Assembly: GCA_051294905.1 (NCBI GenBank)
Contig: CM119372.1
Coordinates: 6,450,001-6,514,000 of the forward strand
Length of the DNA: 64,000 nt
Reading direction: 5' to 3'
Source: Botryllus schlosseri
Taxonomy: Eukaryota
Positions 36,801 through 61,471 of the stretch are shown here, piece after piece. A model generated the notes under the pieces. It ran no database searches. It saw nothing but the letters and a program-made list of their open reading frames with translations, and had not been told where the DNA came from. A program made the translations under genes and the position numbers. Each line of letters opens with the position of its first letter. The first letter of the stretch is position 1.

Positions 36801-39800
36801 AGATAGTTTTCCAGCAAGTACCGTGTCTAGCTAACCCCAATAGCGCTTCTTTATAGTCACTGGAAATAGTTGTCAGTTATCGTGCGCTGCTGACAGTTCG
36901 AAACTGTTTGCCCGTCGCCCCTGTTAGAGAACAAATCGTTGTAGTGACGTAAAGTTTTAAAAATGAGGTTGTTAAACTGTGTGGCCTATTTTATCTTGGT
37001 ATTGAATTCATGCGGCAGGCGGCCTCTACGAAATTTGAGAAGTGGCCAGCCGCCCGTTTTGAGTTGGCGACCCCTGGCTTACACCCACGTCTCAAGAATA
37101 TCATATGACCGGGAGTCTTTTGGCTATTCCAGATGGTGCTGACAAATCCAGATCCAAGTTGTCAGCGTTGTTACTCAAAATTTTCTACTTTATTACAAGT
37201 AGAGTTTTCAACACGTTTCAAAACTACTTCTAGTATAAGTAGGCGATTGAATGCCTGGAAAGCAGTCAATTAGTTTCAAATAATATATTTGGTCGAGTGG
37301 CCGCTTACTGCAGCAAATCGGAGGTGGCTGCTTTCGAAATTGCAAGATGCATCTTGCCAGCTAACGCAGAATTGGTAATGACGTTACACTCTTAGCGAAA
37401 AGACTGTGTAGTCGCACACAAAGCGCCGAAAAGGATGGTATACTATATCATATATCATATATCTTTTTAACATTACGTTGGCGAAGAGAAATATTCTTTT
37501 ACGAATAGCACGCTGACTAGATATTGCAGCATACACCGTCACGATAATAGCCACGATAACGATTCCCCGGATAACATTTCCGATACCATAATCAAACCCG
37601 CGCATTTTCAGTCTCAACAGGAGCGCCAATGCAGCTGACCGCGAGCGACGTGGGCACGACTCAACTCACAATTAGCTGGCGGCCGTCGAGGCCTCAGCGG
37701 CGCCACATGCCGGTTTTGAGATACGAGATCTTCATGACGCACGAAAAGCAATGCGCGCTGGGTCACGACGACGAGATATGCGACTGGCAGGAACACGGTG
37801 AGCTAAGAGGCTTAAGTCTAATTAGTTGACATAGGCGCTGAGATAAAGATCTTCAAAACGGTGCTACGAAAGCGCATTCGCTCTATCGCGTTGCGTATCG
37901 GTAGGTGAACTTCTTACGATATTTGGAATGTGCTGGTGTTATATTTTCAAGAGCTTCTCGGGGGTACATACCTTCAATATACAGTTGAGTAATATATTAA
38001 TATTGAAATAAACCCGAATATTTGCGGCTGACACTCGTCAGGGGTAAAAGTTAGCAACTAACAGAGAATTGGCTCCACTTCTTCGAATTCTCTACTTGTT
38101 ACTACCAGTTCAGAAATGCAAGGATGCACCTTTTAAAGTGCATCGTATTGTTCGATCGAAACGCAAAAGGGGTGATCCAAATTCCCTAACTACAAATGAG
38201 CTTATAAGTAGGGCGAATTTTTTGACCTACAAAATGGAAGATTTTGATCTACAAAATCAAAATTTTGACATTTTTTCACCTTAAAAATCAAATTTTGACC
38301 GAATTTGACCTAGCGTATGCAAATTAGGTGTTTTCCTACGTAATGTTAGAATTGTGCTACTTATCCTCATTTCTGGTTGGAATTGTCTGTCCTTACGAAG
38401 TAGTTTGGCCTGAAAAAAAACTTTTTTGACTCAAAAACTGACAAATTGTTCTATGAAAAACTTTATTTTAACAAAATCTGGCCCTATGAAGATTTCCAAT
38501 AGTTACATTACGCGCTATGGTAGAAAAAATTGAAAGAAATTGTAGTACAACGAAAGATGCTTTCCTACATTCTCGGGTAGAAAGTGTCTGTCCTTACTAA
38601 GTAAGTAGCTTGCCAGGAATTGAGAAAGAACATTCAACAACAGCAGTTGTTGGCTGACAACATTGAAGTTGTGTGTACACTGCTGGTGACAAACAGTGTT
38701 GCTTCATTCTGGCAATGGTTTTTACATCACACTTTTCATCATGCGCTTCTTGATTAAGAACCATGCAATGCCCACGCAGTCTTGCTTCAGTTGTGATATT
38801 GCGGTACGTTGAGCATAACACCATGTCTACCTATTTGTTTCATTTGAATGTTTATGATTCACAATGAGCAGACAATGGGCCGTCTACTACGGTAGGCCTA
38901 TAAAGTAGGCTACAGGCTGTAAAATGTCAAATGATAAGTTCACCGACAGTGCAAAATCTACGATACAAACGAAATGCAAAAAAGTTTTAACTTTGTAAAA
39001 AAATATGAGATTTTTTGACCTAACGCTAGAATTTCGACCTAATTTTGACATTTTTTGACATGTCAAAAAAATCACCCTACTTATAAGTATTAAAGATAGA
39101 ATCGGCATTTTAAAAGGACAGGATACGATTTCGAACGCTAACCTTCCATGCGTTACGCCACGGCACACGACGTACCAATCTACGGTGGCCAAGACGGCCG
39201 TATCATCACAAATCATTAGGGATGGTGTGAACGTGAGGTTCACGTTCGCGTTCTGTGTGTGAACGAGTGAACCTCAGAAATTTAGAGGTTCGCGTTCACA
39301 AACGAACCTTGGTAGGTTCTGCATTGTGAACCTTTTTCGTACATTACAATTTTCACTACAATATAATAACTTCGCATGAAATTTATTGCATTTCAACTGT
39401 GGGCCACTCTATGCACGGTGCTGGCAGCATAAAAGATCAACACCAAACGAGCATGCACCTTGATAACCTGAAAGAATTTACTTGCTTTGTTACAAAACTT
39501 TGCTCGAAATATCCAGCTTTCCGTTTGTGAATATTTAGTGACTCTCTGCTGTGAGATGGACCCGCAATCACACAACATCAAGAGCGAAATACACTACAGG
39601 TAGTCAGCGAATGATGATTATTTAATCAATCAATGGAATTGATATCGTTGTCTGATGTAAAAAAACATCTAGCAGGCGTACAGGGTCAAGCTTGGCTTCG
39701 TATGTTCATGGTATCATAAAAAACATACCCGTGCGATGGGGATGTTGGCTATTTCTGTATAACTTGTTAATGGGGAAATATCCGTAGCAAGTATAGAAAC

Positions 39801-42800
39801 ACGTTTTACACTCTGGTCAATATCAACGTCGCAATACTCATACGCCGAATACATTGTTCGTGCAAGCTTATATTCCCTTGCAAGACCTCGTCGAAATTGT
39901 TGGCAAAGCGACGGAAGATATTGATTTAATGGGGTTATTATATCATTTGATTGTCCCAGTTGATACATTTGGCAACGTTTTAAATGTCAAGATGTACTTC
40001 AGCATTGTGGCAATATATATGTGGCCCGAATCGTCGCTAGGTATCGTATACAATTGTACATTAATATAGGCTATCACGTCACTGAAATGTAGTGTTGGAA
40101 TTAGTAGCAATATGACGTCACCTTATGTCATGAGGTTCACGTTCGCGTTCACACAGAACCTTTAAAAAGCTTAGCCTTCACACGAACCTGAACCTTCCAG
40201 AGGCTCACACCATCCCTACAAATCATATTTATTAGTTGAGTGTGTGTCCTGACTTCTAGGGAACCTCCGAGACTGGCTTATGGAACCTATAGTGTTCTAT
40301 GGAAAACCGATAAAGAACCATTGTACTAGACTCATTATCGCGACAAGGGGACGGGACAACACATTGCCGCTATAAGGATGTGCTGCCGCAACGCAGCGCA
40401 TTTAATGTATACACAGCACAAAGAAGATGTGTTTGCATAACTATATAGTGATCAGTGAACGAGTCCTCGCAATGTAAACAGACCGCTCATGATAATCTAA
40501 ACTTTCAGAAATAACCGTTGCAATTTACCTCTTTAATATTTTCTCTCATTCACAAATCGTTGCTTGTGCCTTTACAGTATGAATGGCCGAGTCATAACGT
40601 ACATGTCCGCCGCCCTATTTCCAATTATAGCGATGGCATGTGGAGGAATTAACAAATTAATTTGAATACGACGACATGAATTTACGTGGCATTATATGCA
40701 TATGCGAATTCGATAAATTACGCCGGTGTACCGTTTCCAAGCGAAATTGCTGCAACGCGCGCAATGACTGCATCGCTTTATTCGCTATTTGGTTATATGT
40801 CACAGCAACACTGCTCATGGGAATACATCAAGGTCTAGTGGTGTCCCCTGAGAAAGAAATATTTAGTCTCTCTACTATTTTGAGTTCAGTGGCGACTTGC
40901 CAATAATTCTTTGTTCAAAGCCCATTCCTTTGGTCGCCATCGCCATTCGCAAAGCACAGGGCATATAACATATTGCCTGTGGTCTGTACTTCATATGACC
41001 ACGACCACCCAACATGATAGCATGCGACAATTGAGCATGTATGGTATATTCCGGGTTAGGGTTGGGTTAGATTAGGGTTAGTATATATAAGGTTTAATTT
41101 CAAGATTCGGGTTTATTATGGGGTTATAAAGTCACAAGCCCTGGTGACTAATGCTAAAGTGTCGCATAATCAACTGACGTTGAGCAACTGTAGGACATGT
41201 TCTGTTTTCCCATAATACATTAAAATTATATCATACCTACACAGTTTTTCCCAGATTCGTTTAGAATTAGAATTATTGAACCCGTAAAAATTGGAAATTG
41301 AATTGAGTTCCTAATAAGAAGTAATGCAACAAAAATCGACTTCAGTTCATATCAAATCAGATCTCATTTTCATAAAAGCAGGATAATGGAAAATGTCTGT
41401 ACACAAAGCTTGGGTCGTTTCACCCTGTGAAGTTCTCCTGTAGCACTTTCAGGAAAACAAGAAATTAGATTAGAATTAGATTACCAGCATTTCACTCTGA
41501 TTGTCTAATTAGACATCTGGAATTATGTAGTTGTGTAGGTGTCATTGCCAACGCCATCTCATGATTGCGATTTCTTTCTTTCGCAGTCCCGGATAGCTGT
41601 TACGCGAAACCGGCCAAACTGTACGAGGTGACGAACTCTTCAGAATTCGGGAGCTGGGAATACGAGAAGAGAAACTACAGCAACGTAATGTCGGTCACAT
41701 TTTTCGAGCTGTCGCCGGGCACCAGCTACTACATCACCGTGTGGGAAGTCACCAAAGCCGGCAGGAGCAAATGCCTGCGACACATCAACGAAATCACGGC
41801 TTTCAATTTGTACGCGACTTGCGGGCTTTGAATTATTGATGCGGCTGCTAACGGTGGCGTGTTTACAGCTGGGTCGCGTACGTGGTGCTGGGGTTTCTGG
41901 TGACCTTCGCTGCGGTTTTGCTGTTGCTGAAGTTCCGGCGGAAGGTGAAGAAAGTGTTTCAGATCGATATTCCGGAGCCGAGGATTTGGATAGATTGGGT
42001 ACGCTGTTGCGTTGTATTTATTACCTTTGCGTCCTTGGGCTCCTTGCCCAAGAGATATCGTTGCGCAATAATTACGGGTCTGGGATCGCCGCTTGATGCC
42101 TAGCGTTTGGGCTCAGCATTCAAGCCATCCTGTTGACCTCATATTTTCAACGCATTGTGGTAATAGAAATATAACGGTGGTCGAATTCTGATTTTTTGTC
42201 CGCCGGTTGTGTCAAAAAAGCCGTAATTTTGCTGCCAGTTCTGTTACAAAATGTCATTCACAGCCACCAATAATGCTAACAGGTTGGTCGATCTGATAAA
42301 ATTTTGGGAGACGGCCCCATAGAATTAGTACGACCCTGCTGAATTCGTCCACTGGGTGTATATACCTGATTTACGCAATTTCGTAGGGTGCAAATCAGAC
42401 CATGTCAATTTCCAATATCAAATATTGCTTTCACATCGATGAAAACGTGTCATGTGTATGAATACTTAACGAGATATATCCCATGGGTGTATTGGGTTCT
42501 TTTATCGTTTTTCACCTTTTTGCGTTCTCTTGGAGTGATACACGAACGCAGAAACCAGTCCACCTCTGGGATAGATTTCCAAAACGGTCCGAATGCACAA
42601 GTCGAAAATTTGTAGGGAGCTTCAGCACTTTTCGCCCCTTGGCTGTATCACTGTGAAGAGAGTGCTTTTGTCCCAGTTCTTGCCCGCATTGTGATTAACG
42701 AGAGATTTTAATCTAACCTGGCTATTTTCCGGATTCTAAAACGGCTTGTTTACGTTTGCACACAAAAGGGCCGTGTTCTCGAGAAATCCCTTCTCAGGGT

Positions 42801-48936: not shown

Positions 48937-49963
48937 TAGGGATGGTGTGAACGTGAGGTTCACGTTCGCGTTCTGTGTGTGAACCTCGGAAATTTTGAGG
49001 TTCGCGTTCACAACAGAACCTTGGTAGGTTCTGCACTGTGAACCTTTTTTATATATTGCAATTTTCGCTTCATTATAACATCTTTGGTTCAAATTTATTG
49101 CATTTAAACTGCGGGCCACTATATGCATGGCGCTGGCAGCATAAACAATCAACACTAAACAAGCATATGCACCTTGACAATCTCAGAAATTTTACTTGCA
49201 TTGTTACAAACGTTTGCTCGAAATATCCAGCTTTCCGTCTGTGAATATTTAGTGTCTCTTTGCTGTGAGCTTGACCCGCAATCACATAACATCAAGAGCG
49301 AAATACACGGCATGTAGTCAGCGAATGATGCTCATTAAATCAATAAATGAGATTGGTATCGTTTTCTGATGTACAAATCTAGCAGACGTACGGGGTCAAT
49401 ATTGATTTCATATGTAAACTGTATCATAAAAACCAAATCCCAAATCCGTGCGATTGGGGTGTTGCCTACTGTTGTATAACTTGATAGTGTGGTAATATCG
49501 GTAGGAAGTATAGAAACCCGTTTTACACTCTGCTCAATATCAATGTAGCAATACTCAGACGCCGAAGACATTGTTCGGTCTGGCCGGGACCGTTAAGGCG
49601 TAAGCTTATATTCCCTGGCAAGTCCTCGTCGAAATTGTTGGCAAAGCGACGGAATATCTTCATTTTATGGAATTATTATATCATTTGATTGCCTCATTTG
49701 ATACATTTGGCGACGTTTAAAACGTCAATATGTACTTCAGCACTGTGCCATTATGTGGCCCGAGTCGTCGCTGGGTATCATGTACAGTACATATATTGTA
49801 CAATACATTAATTTAGGCAATTACATATTTGAAATAAAGGGTTGAAATTAGCAATATGACGTCACGTGACGTCATGAGGTTCACGTTCGCGTTCACACAG
49901 AACCTTTCGAAAAGGTTCGCGTTCACACGAACCTGAACCTTTCAGAGGTTCACACCATCCCTA
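48937..49963. mobile_element. 1-kb non-autonomous hAT element, second copy
   Basis: TIR TAGGGATGGTGTGAAC / GTTCACACCATCCCTA, perfect TSD CTTTCCGG. Confidence 0.93.
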
Positions 49964-50039
49964 CTTTCCGGCCGTAACTGATATCACAAGATGACTTACT
50001 GTGTGGTTTGTGTTGAATCGAATATGTCAACGTATCATA

Positions 50040-50228: not shown

Positions 50229-50756
50229 TCAGCCCTCACCATTTACCGGACCACGGCCTGATATATCGATCTCGCCTTCCGTCACTTGCCAACTTATTTT
50301 ATCGCTTTCCATTTTATATTATCTTCTTTTACTTTCATTCAGTGGCCATATAGCGTAGTGGAATAATCCACAGCTGCATCACCGATGGGTGGCGGGTTCG
50401 AGTCCGACCGAGGTCGACTCCAGAATTCCTACCCAAGTGTTGGAGGTTTATCTGGGCTCTTCCTATGCCTAGTTGTTTCAGCATCTTCCTATCATTCATT
50501 GTATCTTGTGATGTTTTGAAGTGATGAAATTTTATGAACAAACTTGAACTTGGACGCAGCCAAGCGGCGATATAGTACCATGGACGAAAATAGAAACGCG
50601 CTTTGCGTACACCAGTTTAGTGAAACTTCGTAAATCCCAGTACAAGGTCAAGAGTTCAAATGACCTGCAGCGTCCACACTTTGCTTAACATGTATTCTCA
50701 CTTCGTCATATATGCTACGTGTGACACACCAACGCGTAATAGTAGCATATATATTT

Positions 50757-51207
50757 TAGGCTTACCATATTTTGGAAATCTAAAAAGAGGACACTTTTTC
50801 AGAAATTTCAGACTTGCAAAACCGGAGAAGAATTCTCAAAAACCGGTGAATTTTCCCCACTTTGTGATCGGTTGACAAGAAAAAAAAGTCATCTTTTCCG
50901 CCCAGAGCTCAAAATACCGTTTTTCTCTCCGCGTTGCCAGGTGGATGACTAAAAAAAAAAAAGAAAAAAGGTCATCATTTCGCTCAGAGCTAAATTCACC
51001 GTTTTTCTCTCCGGAATACCCGCCGGAGCTTCACTTCTGTGCTAATTTGCGGCATATCACTCGCAATTTGCTCTGAATCTGACCTAAATTTTCAAAAAAG
51101 AGGACAAAATCTCAAATAAGAGGACAAAAGGGCGTCCTCCGAGGACACTTTCAAAAAAGTCAAAAAAGAGGACAAATCCTCTTAAAAGAAGACATATGGT
51201 AAGCCTA
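50757..51207. mobile_element. hAT-type MITE with GAGGAC subterminal repeats
   Basis: TIR TAGGCTTACCATAT / ATATGGTAAGCCTA, perfect TSD ATATATTT. Confidence 0.9.
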
Positions 51208-51676
51208 ATATATTTTGACGCATAGAAGCACTACGTCGCCGAGTCGTTTCTCGGTATGCACAATACCAATCAACTGAATCAACCAACAAATATTGACAAA
51301 ATCCATCGCTATTAAATCGTATAACTTACATGGGCGCATCCAAGTTTTAATATGGTGTTAAGATCACGCCATTCATTTTCACAACTTCGAATACAGCAGG
51401 TCCATCTCGACTTGTGCTCCCGGCTTTACTGAACAATCACAATCATCACGAATAAAGTAGAACATGGACTGTTGTAAATGTGAATGATTGATGATTAATT
51501 GATTGTGCTAGACAGCAACCTTTAGTGTTGCCCCTTTTTTTTACTGTGCACGTGCTATTATGTAGTCTGGCTTATTCCTTGTATTCTGCTGCTGTGTGAG
51601 GAACTCGCGTTCCTGCCTTGACAATAAACCAGCTCACACTTGGTAGTTGTGGCGTGTCTGCTGTTAGAATTCAACA

Positions 51677-51690
51677 GGTTATGGGCCCAG
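51677..51690 (+). other. Copia-type primer binding site complementary to the anticodon arm of initiator tRNA-Met
   Basis: GGTTATGGGCCCAG immediately follows the 5' LTR. This is the half-tRNAi-Met priming site known from Drosophila copia. Confidence 0.9.
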
Positions 51691-51799
51691 CACGCTTCCG
51701 CTGCGGCAAGTAACGAGTTTGGGGATTCCGAAGAAGAGATATTGCGAATATTGGATCGTACGGAGAGCTTACAGTTTCTACAATTTGCGTTGGAGCCTA

Positions 51800-53821
51800 A
51801 TGACTACTATGGCGTCCGGTGAAGTACAGAAATTCACGGCGGACAAACTGCATTGTGATAACTGGCTGACGTGGAAATACCAGATAACTTGTTTGCTGAA
51901 GGCGAAGGAATTATTCCAATATGTTGATGGATCGGAAGTGTTGCCAGGAGGCGCAAATCAGCAGCAGACAAGGGAACATCAGAAGAAGTTAGATAAGGCG
52001 TTAGCCATCATTACTTTGGCTGTCTCTACGTCGCAACTGTATTTAATAACATCCTGCAATACGCCGGAGGATGCCTGGAATGCCTTGAAGGAACACTTTG
52101 AGGGTGACTCCGCCGGTAATAGACTTTTGCTAATGAAGTCGTATTTTCGATGTGAAATGAAACAGTCTGACTCAGTCGAGAGTCATTTGAAATATATGAA
52201 GAAATTGACTGATCAAATGGCTGCTCTTGGCTCACCAGTCGAAGAAACACTGCAAGTTGTAACATTGCTGGGAAGTTTACCTAAGCCTTACGCAACCTTG
52301 GTCACTGCCCTGGAAACTCATAGCGGACCAGGTCTTAAGTTGAAATTTGTTCAAAGAGCAATTTTGAATGAAGAAGATAAGATTTATGGCAAGCAAAAAA
52401 GGGGTAGACAAAATCGCTATGAACTGGAAGAATCAGCAATGGTGTCGAGACAAAAATTACGATGCTATAACTGCGACAAATTTGGTCACCTGTATCACGA
52501 ATGTCAAGAGTCTGATGACAGTGATGAAGAATACACATTTTCTGTTGGTGGTCAAGAAGTTTGTGATGATGCTGATCCAAGCTGGAATGTAGACAGTGGT
52601 GCATCAAAGCACATGTCAAAAGTGAAAGAATCAATCTCGGACTACAGAGAATTTGAGGTTCCTCGACCCATTCACTTAGCCGATGGTAGCACCGTTTCCG
52701 CCTTTGGAATTGGAAAAGTAAACCTCGAAATGTTTCTTGAAAATGAAGAAAATGTAACTGTGACACTGAAAAAGGTTTTATACGTTCCGAAGCTGGCAAG
52801 CAACCTTTTTTCTGTGCGAGCAGCAAGTAAATTTGGTGGCAAAGTTGCATTTATTGGAGATGAATGCAGAATCTACAATAAGCATGGAAGGCTTTGTGGA
52901 ACTGGCTCGGTGGCAGGAAGACTGTACAGATTGTGTTGCCGTCATGTTATATCTGACACAGAAAATATTGCCAATGGACATGTTGAACCAGTGGGAGAAA
53001 TGATATCTGAAAACCACCCTACTGGAAATGGATATAACCAGTATGATGATGTGCCTGATGAATCAACTGATGGAAGGACTGGTACTGAACACACTGCATT
53101 TGCAGCTGCTGGAATATGTGAACCTATAATCTTTGATGAGGCTATGAAATCACCACATTCAAGTGAGTGCAAAAAAGCTGCTGACAGGGAATACGCTTCT
53201 CTGTTGAAGAATGAAACCTGGAGTGTTGTGGAGCAACCACAAGGAACTGCACCTGCTGAATGCCCCTCGGTATTCGAAATAAAATGCGGCATAAATGATA
53301 ATGAGACATTTTCACCAGTTGTCAGATTTATCTCGAGTCGAGCTGTGCTAGCTGTAACACCTGAAAACGAGATGTTACATCAGATGGATGTTGATACTGC
53401 AGTCATGAATTGTCTGCTTGAAGAAGACATCTATATGAGCCGAACACCTGGTTATATTGCATTTGGTTCTGAACATTTGGTGTGTAATCAGTCTTTGTAT
53501 GTATTGAAACAGCCGCAAAGCTGTTGGAACATTGTGCTTAATCAGTACTTTGAGTCGATCGGGTTCAAACACTGTTATTCTGACTCATGCGTTACATGCA
53601 CTGATAAGAATCTGTTCATTGTTGGTGATGTCATTTTGGCTTCGCCGTCTTATGATCAACTAACTGAAGTGAAGTATAACTTCGGCCCTGAATTTTGCAT
53701 GGCGGGTATCTGTGAATCGCATTACTGCCTTGATGTTTGCATTAAGCAAGAACACACTGAGAAGTGTATCTATTTGCATCAAAAACGATACATTTGCAAT
53801 TTGATTGATAGATATGGTTAG
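51800..53821 (+). CDS. Copia Gag-protease fused to a degenerate RT remnant; integrase core and RNase H absent
   Basis: Gag N-terminus KLHCDNWLTWKYQI, zinc knuckle CYNCDKFGHLYHEC, protease WNVDSGASKHM, RT remnants EPIIFDEAM, ETFSPVV and HQMDVDTAVMN, YVDD replaced by IVGD, TAG at 53819. Confidence 0.9.
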   Translation: MTTMASGEVQKFTADKLHCDNWLTWKYQITCLLKAKELFQYVDGSEVLPGGANQQQTREHQKKLDKALAIITLAVSTSQLYLITSCNTPEDAWNALKEHFEGDSAGNRLLLMKSYFRCEMKQSDSVESHLKYMKKLTDQMAALGSPVEETLQVVTLLGSLPKPYATLVTALETHSGPGLKLKFVQRAILNEEDKIYGKQKRGRQNRYELEESAMVSRQKLRCYNCDKFGHLYHECQESDDSDEEYTFSVGGQEVCDDADPSWNVDSGASKHMSKVKESISDYREFEVPRPIHLADGSTVSAFGIGKVNLEMFLENEENVTVTLKKVLYVPKLASNLFSVRAASKFGGKVAFIGDECRIYNKHGRLCGTGSVAGRLYRLCCRHVISDTENIANGHVEPVGEMISENHPTGNGYNQYDDVPDESTDGRTGTEHTAFAAAGICEPIIFDEAMKSPHSSECKKAADREYASLLKNETWSVVEQPQGTAPAECPSVFEIKCGINDNETFSPVVRFISSRAVLAVTPENEMLHQMDVDTAVMNCLLEEDIYMSRTPGYIAFGSEHLVCNQSLYVLKQPQSCWNIVLNQYFESIGFKHCYSDSCVTCTDKNLFIVGDVILASPSYDQLTEVKYNFGPEFCMAGICESHYCLDVCIKQEHTEKCIYLHQKRYICNLIDRYG

Positions 53822-54163
53822 TCTGATACCAAAATGTGTTTCCACTATCTGTGACACTTTCTGGAACTAGAAACTTGGAATAATGGCTCTCGAAATGCTT
53901 TAGCATTGAAATATCAATCAAGTGGGAGTGTTGTAAATGTGAATGATTGATGATTAATTGATTGTGCTAGACAGCAACCTTTAGTGTTGCCCCTTTTTTT
54001 TACTGTGCACGTGCTATTATGTAGTCTGGCTTATTCCTTGTATTCTGCTGCTGTGTGAGGAACTCGCGTTCCTGCCTTGACAATAAACCAGCTCACACTT
54101 GGTAGTTGTGGCGTGTCTGCTGTTAGAATTCAACATGGACTCTGGGACATGGAACACCCATCA

Positions 54164-55728
54164 TTAGCGCTTCTCCGTGAAGGCCTTCGTAATTAAGTCT
54201 TCGCATATCGCGTCGTCCAGTTCCTCTATTATTGTTACATCCTCCGACGAGAGAAATGGTGATCCTTTATTTTTGTGATCTATAATAAAACTACCCCGCG
54301 ATAATAACCCGCTAATTTCCACCGCAACCTTTGCACTCTTGGATTTCGTGACAGCGTTTTCATTCAGTACAATCGCAGTAACGTACGCGTCGCATAAGCA
54401 GTAACCCGGGCTTACTCCCTTGTCGATCTTCCTATCTTCATACACTTTTGCAGCCGCAAATATTGCTTTGAAAAATTGTGCTCTTTTCGAGTCCACCGAC
54501 ATCAATTTGTTCAATAGATCTGGACGAATTCCATGTGCTACTGTCGTTTCGTACGGTACCACTTCCGTTTTGCAATGCTGAGGGAACATCCGAAAAACGG
54601 TGTACGCCGCCTCTGGGTCGGTGTAGAAATTGTACTCGCCACATGGCGTAGCGTTGCCATATCCTTTGATGGTTCCTCCCAATATATGCACGCTTTTAAT
54701 ACGTTTGGGCACATCGGTGTCGATCTTGGCTGCCATAGCGATGTTAGTTAGAGCCCCCAGGCAGATGAGCTGAAAATATGCAGTGGAGATCAAAATACTG
54801 GAATGATTTAAATATCGCGATATGACTTTCTGCATGATAGATGAGGAGGGTAACTTGAGCGGATTTAGAATTGGACCAAATTAGAGTGGGAGTGGTGTAT
54901 TTGATGAGCATGACTGTGGTCAGGCAAGGTCCCATAGAATACATGCATGATGAGCTTCATACACGCAACCTTGGTAGCAATGACGTTTCACTTTGTTGCA
55001 GCGGCAAATATAAATCGTATTAGTTGGGTCAGCCTTCACCCTTGTGCATTATTCTCAGTGCGAATGACTAATCGGAGATTTGGTGCCTCAGCTGTGTGAA
55101 ATCCGGTCTCTGAGTCCATTTACAGGAAGCTGGATCCATGCCGGATCGGGAAAATTACCGGTATGACCCTCGCACATTCGGACACATGATAGACTAACTT
55201 TCGTACCTGTAAACGTCCTGCATATTCTTTGGAAAGTCGGAGAATCGCATCCACTCCGTGTTCCGCCTAACAATTTAATAAGACAGTAATAATCAGTAGA
55301 TATGAATTTGCCATCCACCTCCCTTACTTGAACGTGATCCAACAAAGATTCGCTCCTTTCCGGAAATACGTCGTGTGCGTCACCTAGGCCGTCTCTTCCA
55401 TGGTAAAATGCCGCATCTTTGGTTTTCGGTAGAAGTACCATTGGCTCAGAACAGCCGCCGAATATGGGAATCTATAAATATAAATATCGGTATAACGTTG
55501 GCACTTCTACGAGAAAATCTCCGAAATTCCGCGACTTACCTCATTCAACATATCGAATAACTTCACTATCCTCACTGTATTGATGGTGACATCGCGAAGG
55601 CCGACATTGCCGGCAGCGCATGTAATGCCGACAATTTTCACCTTTGGTACTTGTGACATTAGCATCATTAAAGCCGCGCAGTCGTCAACCCCAGGATCAG
55701 TATCTACAAGCAGTATCTTTTCAGTCAT
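54164..55728 (-). CDS. Nucleoside hydrolase (IUNH family), copy A, 332 aa, 4 exons
   Basis: Exons 55728-55540, 55471-55328, 55266-55207, 54769-54164, all with phase-0 GT-AG introns. Motifs DTDPGVDD (DxDxxxDD), HGRDGLGD, LGALTNIA, GNATPCGEYNFYTDPEAA, YCLCDA. Confidence 0.95.
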
Positions 55729-57436: not shown

Positions 57437-58636
57437 TTACTCTGTAAAGGTCTTCATAATTAGGTCTTCGCATATCGCGTCATCTAGTTCCTCTATAATT
57501 GTCACTTCCGCGGAGGAGAGAAAGGGCGATCCCTTATTTTTGTGATCTATAATAAAACTTCCCCTTGATAATGACCCGCTGAATTCCACTGTCACTTTTG
57601 CACTCTTGGATTTCGTGACTGCATTTTCATTCAAGACAATCGTGGTGACATACGCGTCACATAAGCAGTATCCCTGGCTTAGGCCCTTGGCGATAAGATC
57701 GTCTTCGTATATTTTCGCAGTAGAAAAAATTGCCTTGAAAAAGTTCGCTCTCATCGAGTCTACCGACATCAATTTGTTGAATAGATCAGGACGGATTCCG
57801 TGTGCTGTTGTTGTTTCATACGGTACGACTTCCGTTTTACAATGCTGCGGAAACATCCGAAACACGGTGTATGCTGCCTCTGGGTCGGTGAAGAAATTGT
57901 ACTCGGCACATGGTGAGGCATTGCCATATCCTATGATGGTTCCTCCCAATACATGGATGCTTTTAATACGTTTAGGTAGATCGATGTCCAGCTTGGCTGC
58001 CATAGCGATATTAGTTAGAGCACCAAGACATACGAGCTGAAACAGCACAGAACATTTGCAGTGGAGGCAAGGTACGAGAATAATGCTGCGACAGCAATGT
58101 AACGAGTGTGGTTTTCGTACCTGTAATCTCCCCGCATATTCTTTGGAAAGTCTGAGAATCGCATTCACTCCATGTTCGGCCTAGCAATATAATTTAACAC
58201 TAAACAACCATAAAATGCTGCTATCAACCCAGCGCACCTGAACGTGATCCAACAAAGACTCGCTCCTTTCGGGATATACGTCTGGTGCCTCACCTAGGCC
58301 ATCTCTCCCATGGTAGAATGTTGAGTCTTGTGTTTGTGGCAGAAGTACCATTGGCTCAGAACAGCCGCCGAATATGGGAATCTATAAATACCAGTACACT
58401 GATAGAACTTTATCGCGGAGCCAATGAATCTACACTAAACGCATTACCTCATTCAACATATTAAACAGCTTGACTATCCTCACAGTATTGATTGTGACAT
58501 CGCGAATTCCAACATTGCCTGCAGCGCATGTAATGCCGACGATTTTCACCTTCGGAACTTGCGACATTAGCATCATTAAAGCTGCACAGTCGTCAACTCC
58601 AGGATCAGTATCTACAAGCAGTATCTTTTCCGCCAT
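57437..58636 (-). CDS. Nucleoside hydrolase (IUNH family), copy B, 330 aa, 4 exons
   Basis: Exons 58636-58448, 58381-58238, 58180-58121, 58036-57437, with the same intron positions as copy A. Motifs DTDPGVDD, HGRDGLG, GNASPCAEYNFFTDPEAA, YCLCDA. Confidence 0.95.
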
Positions 58637-58756: not shown

Positions 58757-59346
58757 TATAGAAATTAAACATGGAACGGCAACGACCGATTTTGCAGCTT
58801 CGTTCCGCTTCGCAGAGGCTGGAGAGGAGAGTGGTTTTGCGTAAGCGACTGTAGGATTTCTGGCAATCCAAAATCTATCTTCCCGAGCCCAGAAATTATT
58901 GAATCTGGTCTTGATCGAAAGCTACTGTTGCACCGATTCCGAAAATATAAATTAAAATAATGATCAGGCACTGATCCACCTAGAATCCGTCCTCAAAGTC
59001 GAAATATCGGCATTGTTCGAACAATCGGAGAGTCGCAACGGGTCATTGTTACGGTCATTGTGTTGCGGTTACCCGATTGTTCTGAACAATGCCGATATTT
59101 CAGACTTGGAGGACAGATTCTAGGTGGATCAGTGCCTGATCATTATTTAAATTTATATTTTCGGAACCGGTGCAACAGTAGCTTTCGATCAAGACCAGAT
59201 TCAATAATTTCTGGGCTCGGGAAGATAGCTTTTGGATTGCCAGAAATCCTACAGTCGCTTACGCAAAACCACTCTCCTCTCCAGCCTCTGCGAAGCGGAA
59301 CGAAGCTGCAAAATCGGTCGTTGCCGTTCCATGTTTAATTTCTATA
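58757..59346. mobile_element. 590-bp foldback element with ~280-bp inverted arms and a 7-bp TSD
   Basis: Termini TATAGAAATTAAACATGGAACGGCAACG / CGTTGCCGTTCCATGTTTAATTTCTATA, near-perfect arms, TSD ATTGCAC (58750-58756, 59347-59353). Confidence 0.92.
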
Positions 59347-59973: not shown

Positions 59974-61471
59974 TAGGGCGATTTTTTTGACCTGAAAATC
60001 GGAAGATTTTGTCCTGAAAAAATCAAAATTTTGACTCTGTTTTCCTTAAAAATCTTAAGTTTGACCTAACGTAGGCAAATTAGATGTTTTCCCACATAAT
60101 GTTCGAATTGTACTACTTTTCTTCATTTCTGGTTGAAACTGTCTGTCCTTACGAAGTAGTTTGGCATGAAAAAAGCTTTTTTTGCCTCAAAAACTGACAA
60201 ATTTTTACATGAAAAACCTTATTTTAACGACATCTGGCCCTATGAAGGATTCCAGTAGTTACATTACGCATTATGGTAGAAATAATTAAGCTTTTTTGTC
60301 ACGGGTTGAAAGTGTTTGTCCTTACTAAGTTGCTTGCCAAGAATGGAGAAAGAACGTTCAACAGCAGCAGTTGTTGGCTGACACCGCTGGTGACAAACCG
60401 TGTTGCTTCATTCTGGCAATGGTGTCTATATACATCACAATTTTTCATCATGCGCTTCTTGATGTAAGAGCCATGCTATGCCCACGCAGTCGTGCTTCAG
60501 TTGAGATATTGCGGTACGTTGAGCATAACACCGTGTCAACCTATTCGTTTCATTTGAATCTTTATGATTCGCAATGACCAGAAAATGAATGGGCTGTCTA
60601 CAATAGGGCTCTACAAAAATTACTTTTTTTCCTCAAATCGTACTGGCTACTTGATAAAATTGTTAGGTTACCTAATTTAAGCCTACACACAAAATTTGGT
60701 TCAATTCCAGCTAGGAACCGCTTTGCTACAGAAGAAGAAAGTTTCTATTTATCATATAAAAATAAATAATAAAAATGTTTAAAATTTTCTGTTCACCCCA
60801 TGAAAGTGTTAGGCTGTCTATAGAAACGATGCTCACCAAATTTGGTTCAAATCCAACCACTGGAAGCGGAGTTATTGCCGTCGAAAAATTTGGATTTGAA
60901 TAAAATAGTATTTACGGTGACCGATTCTTTGTTTATTTATTATAGTTGTGCTCACCGTAAATACTATTTTATTTAAATCCAAATTTTTCGACGGCAATAA
61001 CTCCGCTTCAACTGGTTGGATTTGAACCAAATTTGGTGAGCATCGTTTCTATAGACAGCCTAACACTTTCATGGGGTGAACAGAAAATTTTCAAATTTTT
61101 TATTATTTATTTTTATATAATAAATAGAAACGTTCTTCTCCTGTAGCAAAGCGGTTACTGGCTGGAATTGAACCAAATTTTGTGTGTAGGCTTAAATTAG
61201 GTAACCTAACAATTTTATCAAGTAGCCAGTACGATTTGAGAAAAAAAGTCATTTTTGAAGAGCCCTAGTCTACAACGGTAGGCCTAAAGTAGGCTACAAG
61301 CTGTAAAATGTCTAATGATAAGTTCACCGACAGTGCAAAATCTACGATAAAAACGAAATTCAGGCTGCAAAATAGTTTTAACTTTGTAAGCAATTTTGAC
61401 ATTTTTAGACCTAACGCTACAATTTTGACCTAGTTTGACTTTTTTTGACATGTCAAGAAAAAAATCGGCTA
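59974..61471 (-). mobile_element. Middle hAT element of the nest (same family as 38209-39079)
   Basis: TAGGGCGATTTTT...AAAATCGGCTA, perfect TSD GTGATCAG (59966-59973, 61472-61479), collinear with 38209-39079. Confidence 0.92.
60604..61267. mobile_element. Inner, almost fully palindromic hAT-type MITE
   Basis: TIR TAGGGCTCT / AGAGCCCTA, ~320-bp near-perfect inverted arms, perfect TSD GTCTACAA (60596-60603, 61268-61275). Confidence 0.94.

Follow-up and report, generated by a model that had tools for sequence, protein, structure and literature searches.

How does a retrotransposon that has lost the enzymes for its own copying come to be freshly inserted in a genome, with a reading frame of 673 codons still open? 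The question is raised by a 2,666-bp Ty1/Copia long terminal repeat (LTR) retrotransposon at positions 51470-54135 of the stretch analysed here, 64,000 bp of contig CM119372.1 of Botryllus schlosseri without N (the window). The initial annotation, made from the DNA letters alone, had described a very recent insertion with intact Gag and protease, no integrase and a dead reverse transcriptase (RT), and had proposed a non-autonomous lineage selected to translate Gag-protease (Gag-PR) together with an RT-derived tail. We have found statistically that the Gag-PR residues were kept, whereas the RT residues appear to have drifted like unselected sequence, all within one open reading frame (ORF). The explanation that we favour, with about even confidence, is a helper-dependent Ty1/Copia lineage selected for Gag-PR and for frame-only translation through the tail.

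A recent insertion of a Copia element without its enzymes

The element has the following parts:

51465-51469, plus strand: left copy of the target-site duplication, 5 bp (TGGAC; the same 5-mer is at 54136-54140)
51470-51676, plus strand: 5' LTR, 207 bp, TG...CA, identical to the 3' LTR
51677-51690, plus strand: primer-binding site (PBS), directly 3' of the 5' LTR, placed by sequence
51691-51799, plus strand: 5' leader, with no ATG from the PBS to the ORF start
51800-53821, plus strand: single ORF, 673 aa (Gag, zinc knuckle, protease, integrase scar, decayed RT)
51800-52507, plus strand: Gag with complete CCHC zinc knuckle, residues 1-236 (PF14223, E 2.8e-38)
52508-52570, plus strand: shortened Gag-protease linker, about 20 residues below all six relatives shown
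52571-52975, plus strand: aspartic protease, residues 258-392, with the catalytic DSG motif (PF22936, E 3.7e-22)
52976-53110, plus strand: integrase scar left by 1 to 3 in-frame deletions, between the protease end and the integrase/RT linker
53111-53821, plus strand: decayed RT, residues 438-673, with in-frame losses, no YxDD and the stop inside RT
53822-53919, plus strand: what remains of the RT end and the RNase H C-terminus, out of frame and with stops (three-frame translation against relatives' C-termini)
53920-53928, plus strand: short purine-rich tract, a probable polypurine tract (PPT) from its sequence and, for function, its position
53929-54135, plus strand: 3' LTR, delimited by LTR comparison, with AATAAA at 54082
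54136-54140, plus strand: right copy of the target-site duplication, matching the left copy

The two LTRs match at 207/207 positions (upper 95% bound of the difference, 1.4%) and TGGAC stands at both ends. The insertion was recent and occurred by ordinary LTR integration, in agreement with the initial annotation. Within the ORF, Pfam matched Retrotran_gag_2 (residues 31-194), the Pol_BBD protease (262-344) and a partial RVT_2 (496-671, E 6e-22), and no integrase family. The zinc knuckle (residues 221-236) gave a weak Pfam match (E 0.03), but its CX2CX4HX4C pattern is complete. The Gag also matched the solved Drosophila Copia capsid (8s41/8vvw, E 2e-12). TG...CA LTRs, a 5-bp duplication and Copia-type Gag, protease and RT (RVT_2) sequences are all present, and the integrase/RT linker sits between protease and RT as in Copia, the integrase itself being deleted. 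By its LTRs, target duplication and domain sequences the element is a Ty1/Copia member. An intact integrase core, a catalytic RT motif and RNase H, as an autonomous Copia would have, were not found in it.

The 5' leader showed no unusual RNA structure (z 0.63), which leaves a structured packaging leader unsupported. The Gag-protease linker does not contain a short motif common to all six relatives shown; if this motif were a protease cleavage site, Gag would be released with a different end.

The losses are in frame and older than the last insertion

We have aligned the ORF product with the best 70 of 120 full-length relatives listed. About 330 core integrase columns are missing, as are 249 columns comprising the RT end and RNase H. 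The RT part is short of 22, 1, 2 and 6 (or 2+4) residues, the 22-residue segment being the one with the KARLVA motif, and the YxDD motif is not present. Four of the five RT gaps fall on columns filled in 70/70 relatives and the fifth on columns filled in 25/70. The deletion junctions of scar and RT lie near 52976-53017, 53284, 53377, 53485 and 53608-53621. Between the zinc knuckle and the protease, about 20 more residues have been lost in frame. Eight residues in the scar could be a putative integrase remnant, with borderline support (6 and 13 of 300 shuffles for two relatives, 68 and 267 of 300 for two others).

The 73 relatives compared gave 156 plus-strand tblastn pieces, every one of them in the frame of the ORF, which rules out a hidden compensated frameshift. 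The losses of integrase, RNase H, the KARLVA segment and the YVDD motif, and a 673-codon frame kept open through several deletions and many substitutions, were thus as initially described. The frame is unbroken over these 673 codons, but it ends inside RT and not at the end of the element: the final 108 bp before the 3' LTR, read by eye, contain the end of the RNase H coding sequence out of frame, together with a stop.

The tail has diverged by about 0.15 substitutions per site. Set against an LTR difference below 1.4% (0/207), this shows that the RT decay is older than the last jump and took place in ancestors already without RT function. As integrase, RNase H and the catalytic RT motif are missing from a freshly inserted copy, these enzymes were supplied by another element.

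Gag-protease residues were kept while RT residues drifted

To compare constraint at the amino-acid level, we counted a column as conserved when 90% or more of the 70 relatives agreed on it and the nearest lineage members kept it too. The element differs at 4 of the 84 such columns of Gag-PR but at 23 of the 82 of RT (Fisher p=4e-5), and the protease was changed at none of its 24 near-invariant columns. This agrees with the initial description of Gag-PR as intact. Relative-rate comparisons pointed in the same direction. The RT had 44 private changes against 14 in its nearest counterpart (P0321), with p<0.05 for 70/70 outgroups, whereas Gag-PR had 28 against 27 in P0004, with p<0.05 for 3/70 outgroups.

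The RT changes look unselected. Of the 23, 22 are one base away from a codon for the conserved residue, and 15 are radical, a share no lower than the 51-54% that random missense would give. The RT tail showed no sign of constraint at the protein level.

Even so, the tail of such a helper-dependent lineage might matter as a protein, with a Gag-PR-dead RT fusion that aids co-assembly with the helper or holds the RNA in cis. An in-frame fusion after an internal deletion is the design of the mouse intracisternal A particle (IAP) element 1-delta-1, reported to act in cis (PMC6466679, accessible text). RVT_2 still matches the tail (E 6e-22), in which 59 of 82 conserved residues survive, but that many would remain after 0.15 substitutions per site in any case, the substitutions at conserved columns were no less radical than random ones (15/23) and the deletions cut the RT core. 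A parallel is offered by P0366, a 911-residue protein of a distant Copia clade (contig of 3,349 bp), which has Gag and protease in one ORF and is likewise without integrase and the same RT segment. P0366, however, is one unflanked record and keeps YVDD and RNase H. On balance we regard a role of the tail as a protein as rather unlikely.

The frame stayed open beyond chance and mutation bias

The scar and the dead RT together span about 280 codons without a stop, and their 5-8 deletions are all in frame. From the tail's own codons, 3.5-6.6 stops would be expected (probability of none 0.001-0.03, with a looser first estimate of up to 0.075); weighting by the observed mutation spectrum gave 5.2-7.7. 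For 5-7 deletions, the probability of all being in frame is 0.004-0.0005 at one in three each. The joint chance of both outcomes would be about 1e-4 or less. Beyond the ORF stop (53821), the remnant is out of frame and contains stops, as is consistent with free decay beyond the frame.

A mutation bias that avoids stops (A>G / T>C editing) was rejected, since 5 of 22 changes were of this kind and the spectrum-weighted expectation of stops was higher, not lower. Codons adjacent to stops were not depleted in the tail (110/281 vs 165/392).

As an empirical control we have used 69 Copia loci fetched by a metagenome scan with the nearest RT, all at most 55% identical. Fifty-one of them cover at least 150 RT positions, and 40 of these keep at most 80% of the conserved columns. 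Stops or frame switches were present in 37 of these 40 comparably eroded loci, a count that serves as a guide and not as a p-value, the loci including near-duplicates, distant clades and possible sequencing errors. In the three open, eroded-looking loci the catalytic motif is retained, and these are probably sound elements from distant clades.

These figures bear on the simplest alternative, a one-off event. What was mobilised once would have been either an old defective copy or a recombinant of an active element (LTR, Gag-PR) with an old decayed copy (tail), the open frame being due to luck and ascertainment. Template switching would give identical LTRs and an intact Gag-PR without long-term selection, and the integrase deletions may number just one. 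In-frame deletions are also found in other database proteins: P0113 is 91% identical to the full-length P0181 in Gag-PR and has two in-frame deletions downstream of it. The element is the only copy within the window, where no second copy, sister or solo LTR was found, in line with a one-off. Such an event would nonetheless leave a tail free of stops and frameshifts unexplained, at a joint chance of about 1e-4 or less, when 37 of 40 comparably eroded loci are broken. We consider it unlikely.

Relatives of the element

Among the matches listed, the full-length Copia polyproteins have about 1,200-1,440 residues and are at best 40-46% identical to the element, and a closer group (P0004, P0008 and P0242; 51-58% identical) consists of truncated proteins. 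The element and these three form a supported clade in a 35-row Gag-PR tree (100/100). The nearest RT, that of P0321, is 52.5% identical over 236 columns. The named relatives come from a sponge and a coral, which, like the short GT-AG introns of the neighbouring genes, is an indirect sign of an animal host.

The protein search covered the best 120 of 184 matches of near length, the best 120 of 139 longer ones and all 56 shorter ones; for representative proteins it covered the best 150 of 27,313 matches. The exact 673-aa protein was not in the protein collection searched, and a metagenome scan with the element protein gave 17 pattern matches, 0 of them confirmed. A Gag, protease and RT signal without integrase core was present in 5 of 439 proteins, namely the element, P0366, P0113, P0409 and P0429. 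Of these, P0409 and P0429 were rejected as parallels for their apparently sound RT; P0302, a eukaryotic gene model, was rejected as well. P0366 is a possible independent case of the same route, judging from its domain content. Both P0366 and P0113 are single unflanked records, to be read as leads, and protein databases favour open frames.

The PBS of the element is presumably of the Drosophila copia type, pairing with an initiator tRNA-Met fragment. No tRNA gene was found in the 64-kb window. The same PBS is present in 2 of the 69 fetched loci (L001 and L006), in L001 upstream of a 1,322-codon ORF. Positions 298-6887 of L001 hold two Copia units head to tail, an RT-RNase H end being followed by the PBS at 2851 and this ORF, which suggests a tandem arrangement with a shared LTR. 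Membership of the GalEa clade of Copia was also considered and rejected: the PBS of the element differs from the GalEa1-type site, complementary to the 3' end of tRNA-Met, as given in the accessible text of PMC3587641.

Presence of the element in sequencing runs

We have compared sequencing runs by the share of the element's sampled words that each contains, the types of the runs being mostly unknown or guessed. Among the 24 runs listed, 20 hold part of the element and 19 hold half of the words or more, these 19 carrying one organism label and coming from six studies. Words outside the tail make up at most 63%. This value was clearly exceeded by runs X1 (0.79) and X2 (0.72), weakly by X3 (0.69) and not by the other runs. 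By the shares in X1 and X2, the decayed tail is present in other samples too. Element words are almost lacking in runs X22-X24, which is no evidence of absence.

That no run exceeded 0.79 would fit an assembly artefact, in which the LTRs became identical through collapse or polishing, or a chimera was stitched together. A collapse would not create 5-8 in-frame deletions, however, and the target duplication is perfect, the host gene continues on one side, the sequence has no N and tail words occur in other runs. An artefact is therefore scarcely credible.

A proposed model of selection on translatability

The element, having neither integrase nor a working RT, was integrated by foreign ones. 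Under the explanation that we favour, its lineage would have been copied in trans many times over, since a Gag-PR kept beside a drifting RT is explained only by selection during replication. Gag-PR made on the element's own RNA would give that RNA an edge in particle assembly. With less certainty, copies with an early stop would be lost because a long 3' untranslated region (UTR) exposes their RNA to degradation or impairs its capture. From the present stop, the 3' UTR measures about 290 nt; if translation ended directly behind the protease, it would measure about 1,130 nt. The tail would serve as a translated spacer, trimmed stepwise and clipped off by the protease, with no role as an enzyme. 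Selection on the frame is preferred over selection on the protein because the residues look random, the deletions cut the RT core and decay is free past the stop.

In its more specific form, this explanation describes an animal Copia lineage whose tail of about 280 codons is under selection for translatability only, with residues randomised, the frame policed and the ribosome ending near the 3' LTR. We put this forward tentatively, at somewhat less than even confidence. Three published observations, each taken from the accessible part of its source, lend it plausibility. Long 3' UTRs mark direct targets of nonsense-mediated decay (NMD) in Drosophila (median 423 vs 218 nt; PMC3962487), a minimal level of translation has been suggested to stabilise Ty1 RNA (PMC3945221) and translation of the mouse IAP 1-delta-1 acts in cis (PMC6466679).

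Several points weigh against the favoured explanation. The case is built on one examined copy, and the protein search, made outside this genome, found no sister or helper protein, the nearest being 55-58% identical. Gag alone had 24 private changes against 12 in P0008 (p<0.05 with 37/70 outgroups) and was changed at 5 of 24 near-invariant columns when the lineage filter was left out; Gag may thus have been under some relaxation. P0004, P0008 and P0321, which served as lineage controls, are truncated themselves. The element was chosen for its open frame, which inflates the surprise and weakens the significance somewhat, though hardly by four orders of magnitude. Drosophila copia RNA is an indirect and not a direct NMD target, according to the accessible text of PMC3962487, and the yeast Ty1, also of Copia type, has no cis preference in packaging in that of PMC3945221. 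As for the runs, X1 and X2 belong to one study, may carry the same inherited insertion and may include the source of the window, and the single holder run on record as RNA has a share of 0.25. If sisters proved absent or broken, the element would be an ordinary deleted Copia copy. The initially proposed selected lineage is in line with a kept Gag-PR, a drifting RT and a frame open beyond chance and mutation bias, but no sister or helper has been found for it.

Restriction by a truncated Gag is known in yeast Ty1, and the element could similarly be interfering or favoured by the host. Its Gag-PR-dead RT product would poison helper particles, and selection would act on a persistent source locus from which copies arise now and then. 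The signs of selection on Gag-PR and on expression would be the same in that case, and defective elements of high affinity can drive out competent ones in simulation (PMC10924933, accessible text). Identical LTRs and a fresh target duplication mark a mobile copy and not a fixed gene, however; a restriction factor needs no drifting tail of 280 codons, and no source locus was seen. We judge such a function quite improbable.

If the favoured explanation holds, RNA surveillance or translation-coupled packaging, and not protein function, would filter which defective retrotransposons spread. Our analysis suggests that helper-dependent elements may be selected for being translated to the end, not for the enzyme itself, one ORF here separating two constraints, on residues in Gag-PR and on the frame alone in the tail. 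This bears on why some defective LTR retrotransposons retain coding frames and become more widespread than their helpers. For annotation, the element also suggests that a long intact ORF in a transposon is no guarantee of a working enzyme. P0366 and other single-ORF proteins without integrase would, under the favoured explanation, represent independent repeats of the same route.

The host gene and the surrounding window

The element stands next to a host gene:

54164-55728, minus strand: nucleoside hydrolase gene, 4 exons (PF01156; GT-AG intron sets give an open frame of 334-339 aa)

The element is antisense to this gene and 23 nt past its stop codon, so that the insertion site is probably the 3' UTR of the gene. 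Element RNA could come from read-through of the host gene, because the element lies antisense in this probable 3' UTR. On the minus strand, the insertion puts 2.7 kb between the gene and a candidate poly(A) signal (ATTAAA at 51351); the first minus-strand AATAAA inside the element is at 52855. The hydrolase mRNA may now carry antisense RT sequence and is a possible source of small RNA.

The hydrolase gene is one of two tandem inosine-uridine nucleoside hydrolase genes (54164-55728 and 57437-58636, both minus strand; DNA about 81-83% identical). Each has three introns of 48-84 nt, except for one of about 425 nt in the first gene, and can be spliced to open frames of about 330-339 aa. Upstream of the second gene lies a near-perfect palindromic element of 590 bp (58757-59346), similar to a miniature inverted-repeat transposable element or a foldback element, and 85% self-complementary without gaps or 94% by BLAST. 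Another palindromic element of 664 bp (60604-61267; 93% by BLAST) lies within a further repeat, an uninterrupted copy of which is at 38198-39071.

Upstream of the retrotransposon, positions 50751-51213 contain 20-nt inverted repeats (95%), 423 nt apart, around short direct repeats, and are probably a small non-autonomous DNA transposon. The window also holds two copies of a 1-kb repeat (39217-40219 and 48937-49964; 82% identical) and many dispersed repeats of 100-400 bp. A weak fibronectin type III match (E 0.002) at 41565-41828 on the plus strand is perhaps a host gene exon.

Comparison with known systems

The initial annotation had compared the element with the TR-GAGs of plants, a related kind; the comparison proved too narrow, as closer precedents exist. 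In the accessible text of PMC4350172, TR-GAGs of plants and brown algae are shorter than 4 kb, with LTRs, PBS, PPT, a 5-bp duplication and one Copia-type Gag ORF with a zinc knuckle, and one TR-GAG was seen to transpose (PMC8704663, in part). The element shares the size below 4 kb, LTRs, PBS, PPT and one Gag ORF. TR-GAGs are defined by no similarity to protease, integrase, RT or RNase H (PMC4350172), whereas the element has a full protease (E 3.7e-22) and an RT remnant (RVT_2, E 6e-22), and TR-GAG identity was rejected. No TR-GAG was predicted in Drosophila, the one animal tested according to that text. If the favoured explanation is true, the element would be a caught intermediate between full Copia and TR-GAG-like elements outside plants, and would bear on whether TR-GAGs only donate Gag.

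The gag-protease-only ATHILA elements, the commonest form in Brassicaceae (934 of 2,322 elements; 10.64898/2026.03.20.713144, accessible part), likewise kept gag and protease, lost the enzymes and were recently active. Unlike the element, they are plant Ty3/Gypsy elements with one clean 3-kb deletion of RT, RNase H and integrase, and that part of the source does not describe a translated dead-RT tail. Among the non-autonomous families of sugar beet, 8 of 115 similarly keep GAG/PROT remnants and a decayed POL, but these are plant families with patchy preservation, and an open frame is not reported in the accessible text (PMC13570524).

In animals, the spliced Gag+PR of Drosophila copia shows Gag plus protease to be a natural unit of Copia that processes itself and forms capsids (PMC11835246, accessible text); it is spliced from a complete element and is not a separately mobile deleted genome. 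The mammalian ERVL-MaLR are pol-less LTR elements with a gag-related ORF (PMC11359688, accessible text); unlike the element, they are ERV-L derived, have no protease or RT remnant and carry mostly decayed ORFs. The open-access literature, with subscription papers and Repbase outside its scope, yielded no Copia family of animals in which an intact Gag-PR is combined with a dead but translated RT. The term non-autonomous does not occur in the accessible part of a survey of animal Copia diversity (PMC11889832), and those of PMC3286476 and PMC9341512 contain no comparable element.

By analogy, the element would work most like the mouse IAP 1-delta-1, a non-autonomous endogenous retrovirus whose gag has been joined to a remnant of pol, as a single ORF, by an internal deletion; it is mobilised in trans, and the fusion is reported to be cis-acting (PMC6466679, accessible text). 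The element contains the same in-frame gag-pol fusion from internal deletion. With precedents closer than TR-GAGs known, namely gag-protease-only ATHILA, the beet GAG/PROT families and IAP 1-delta-1, the surprise is therefore lowered: the element is statistically odd, but its kind is already known. What is probably new, in this one copy, is the clean split between residue-level and frame-level constraint in an animal Copia element.

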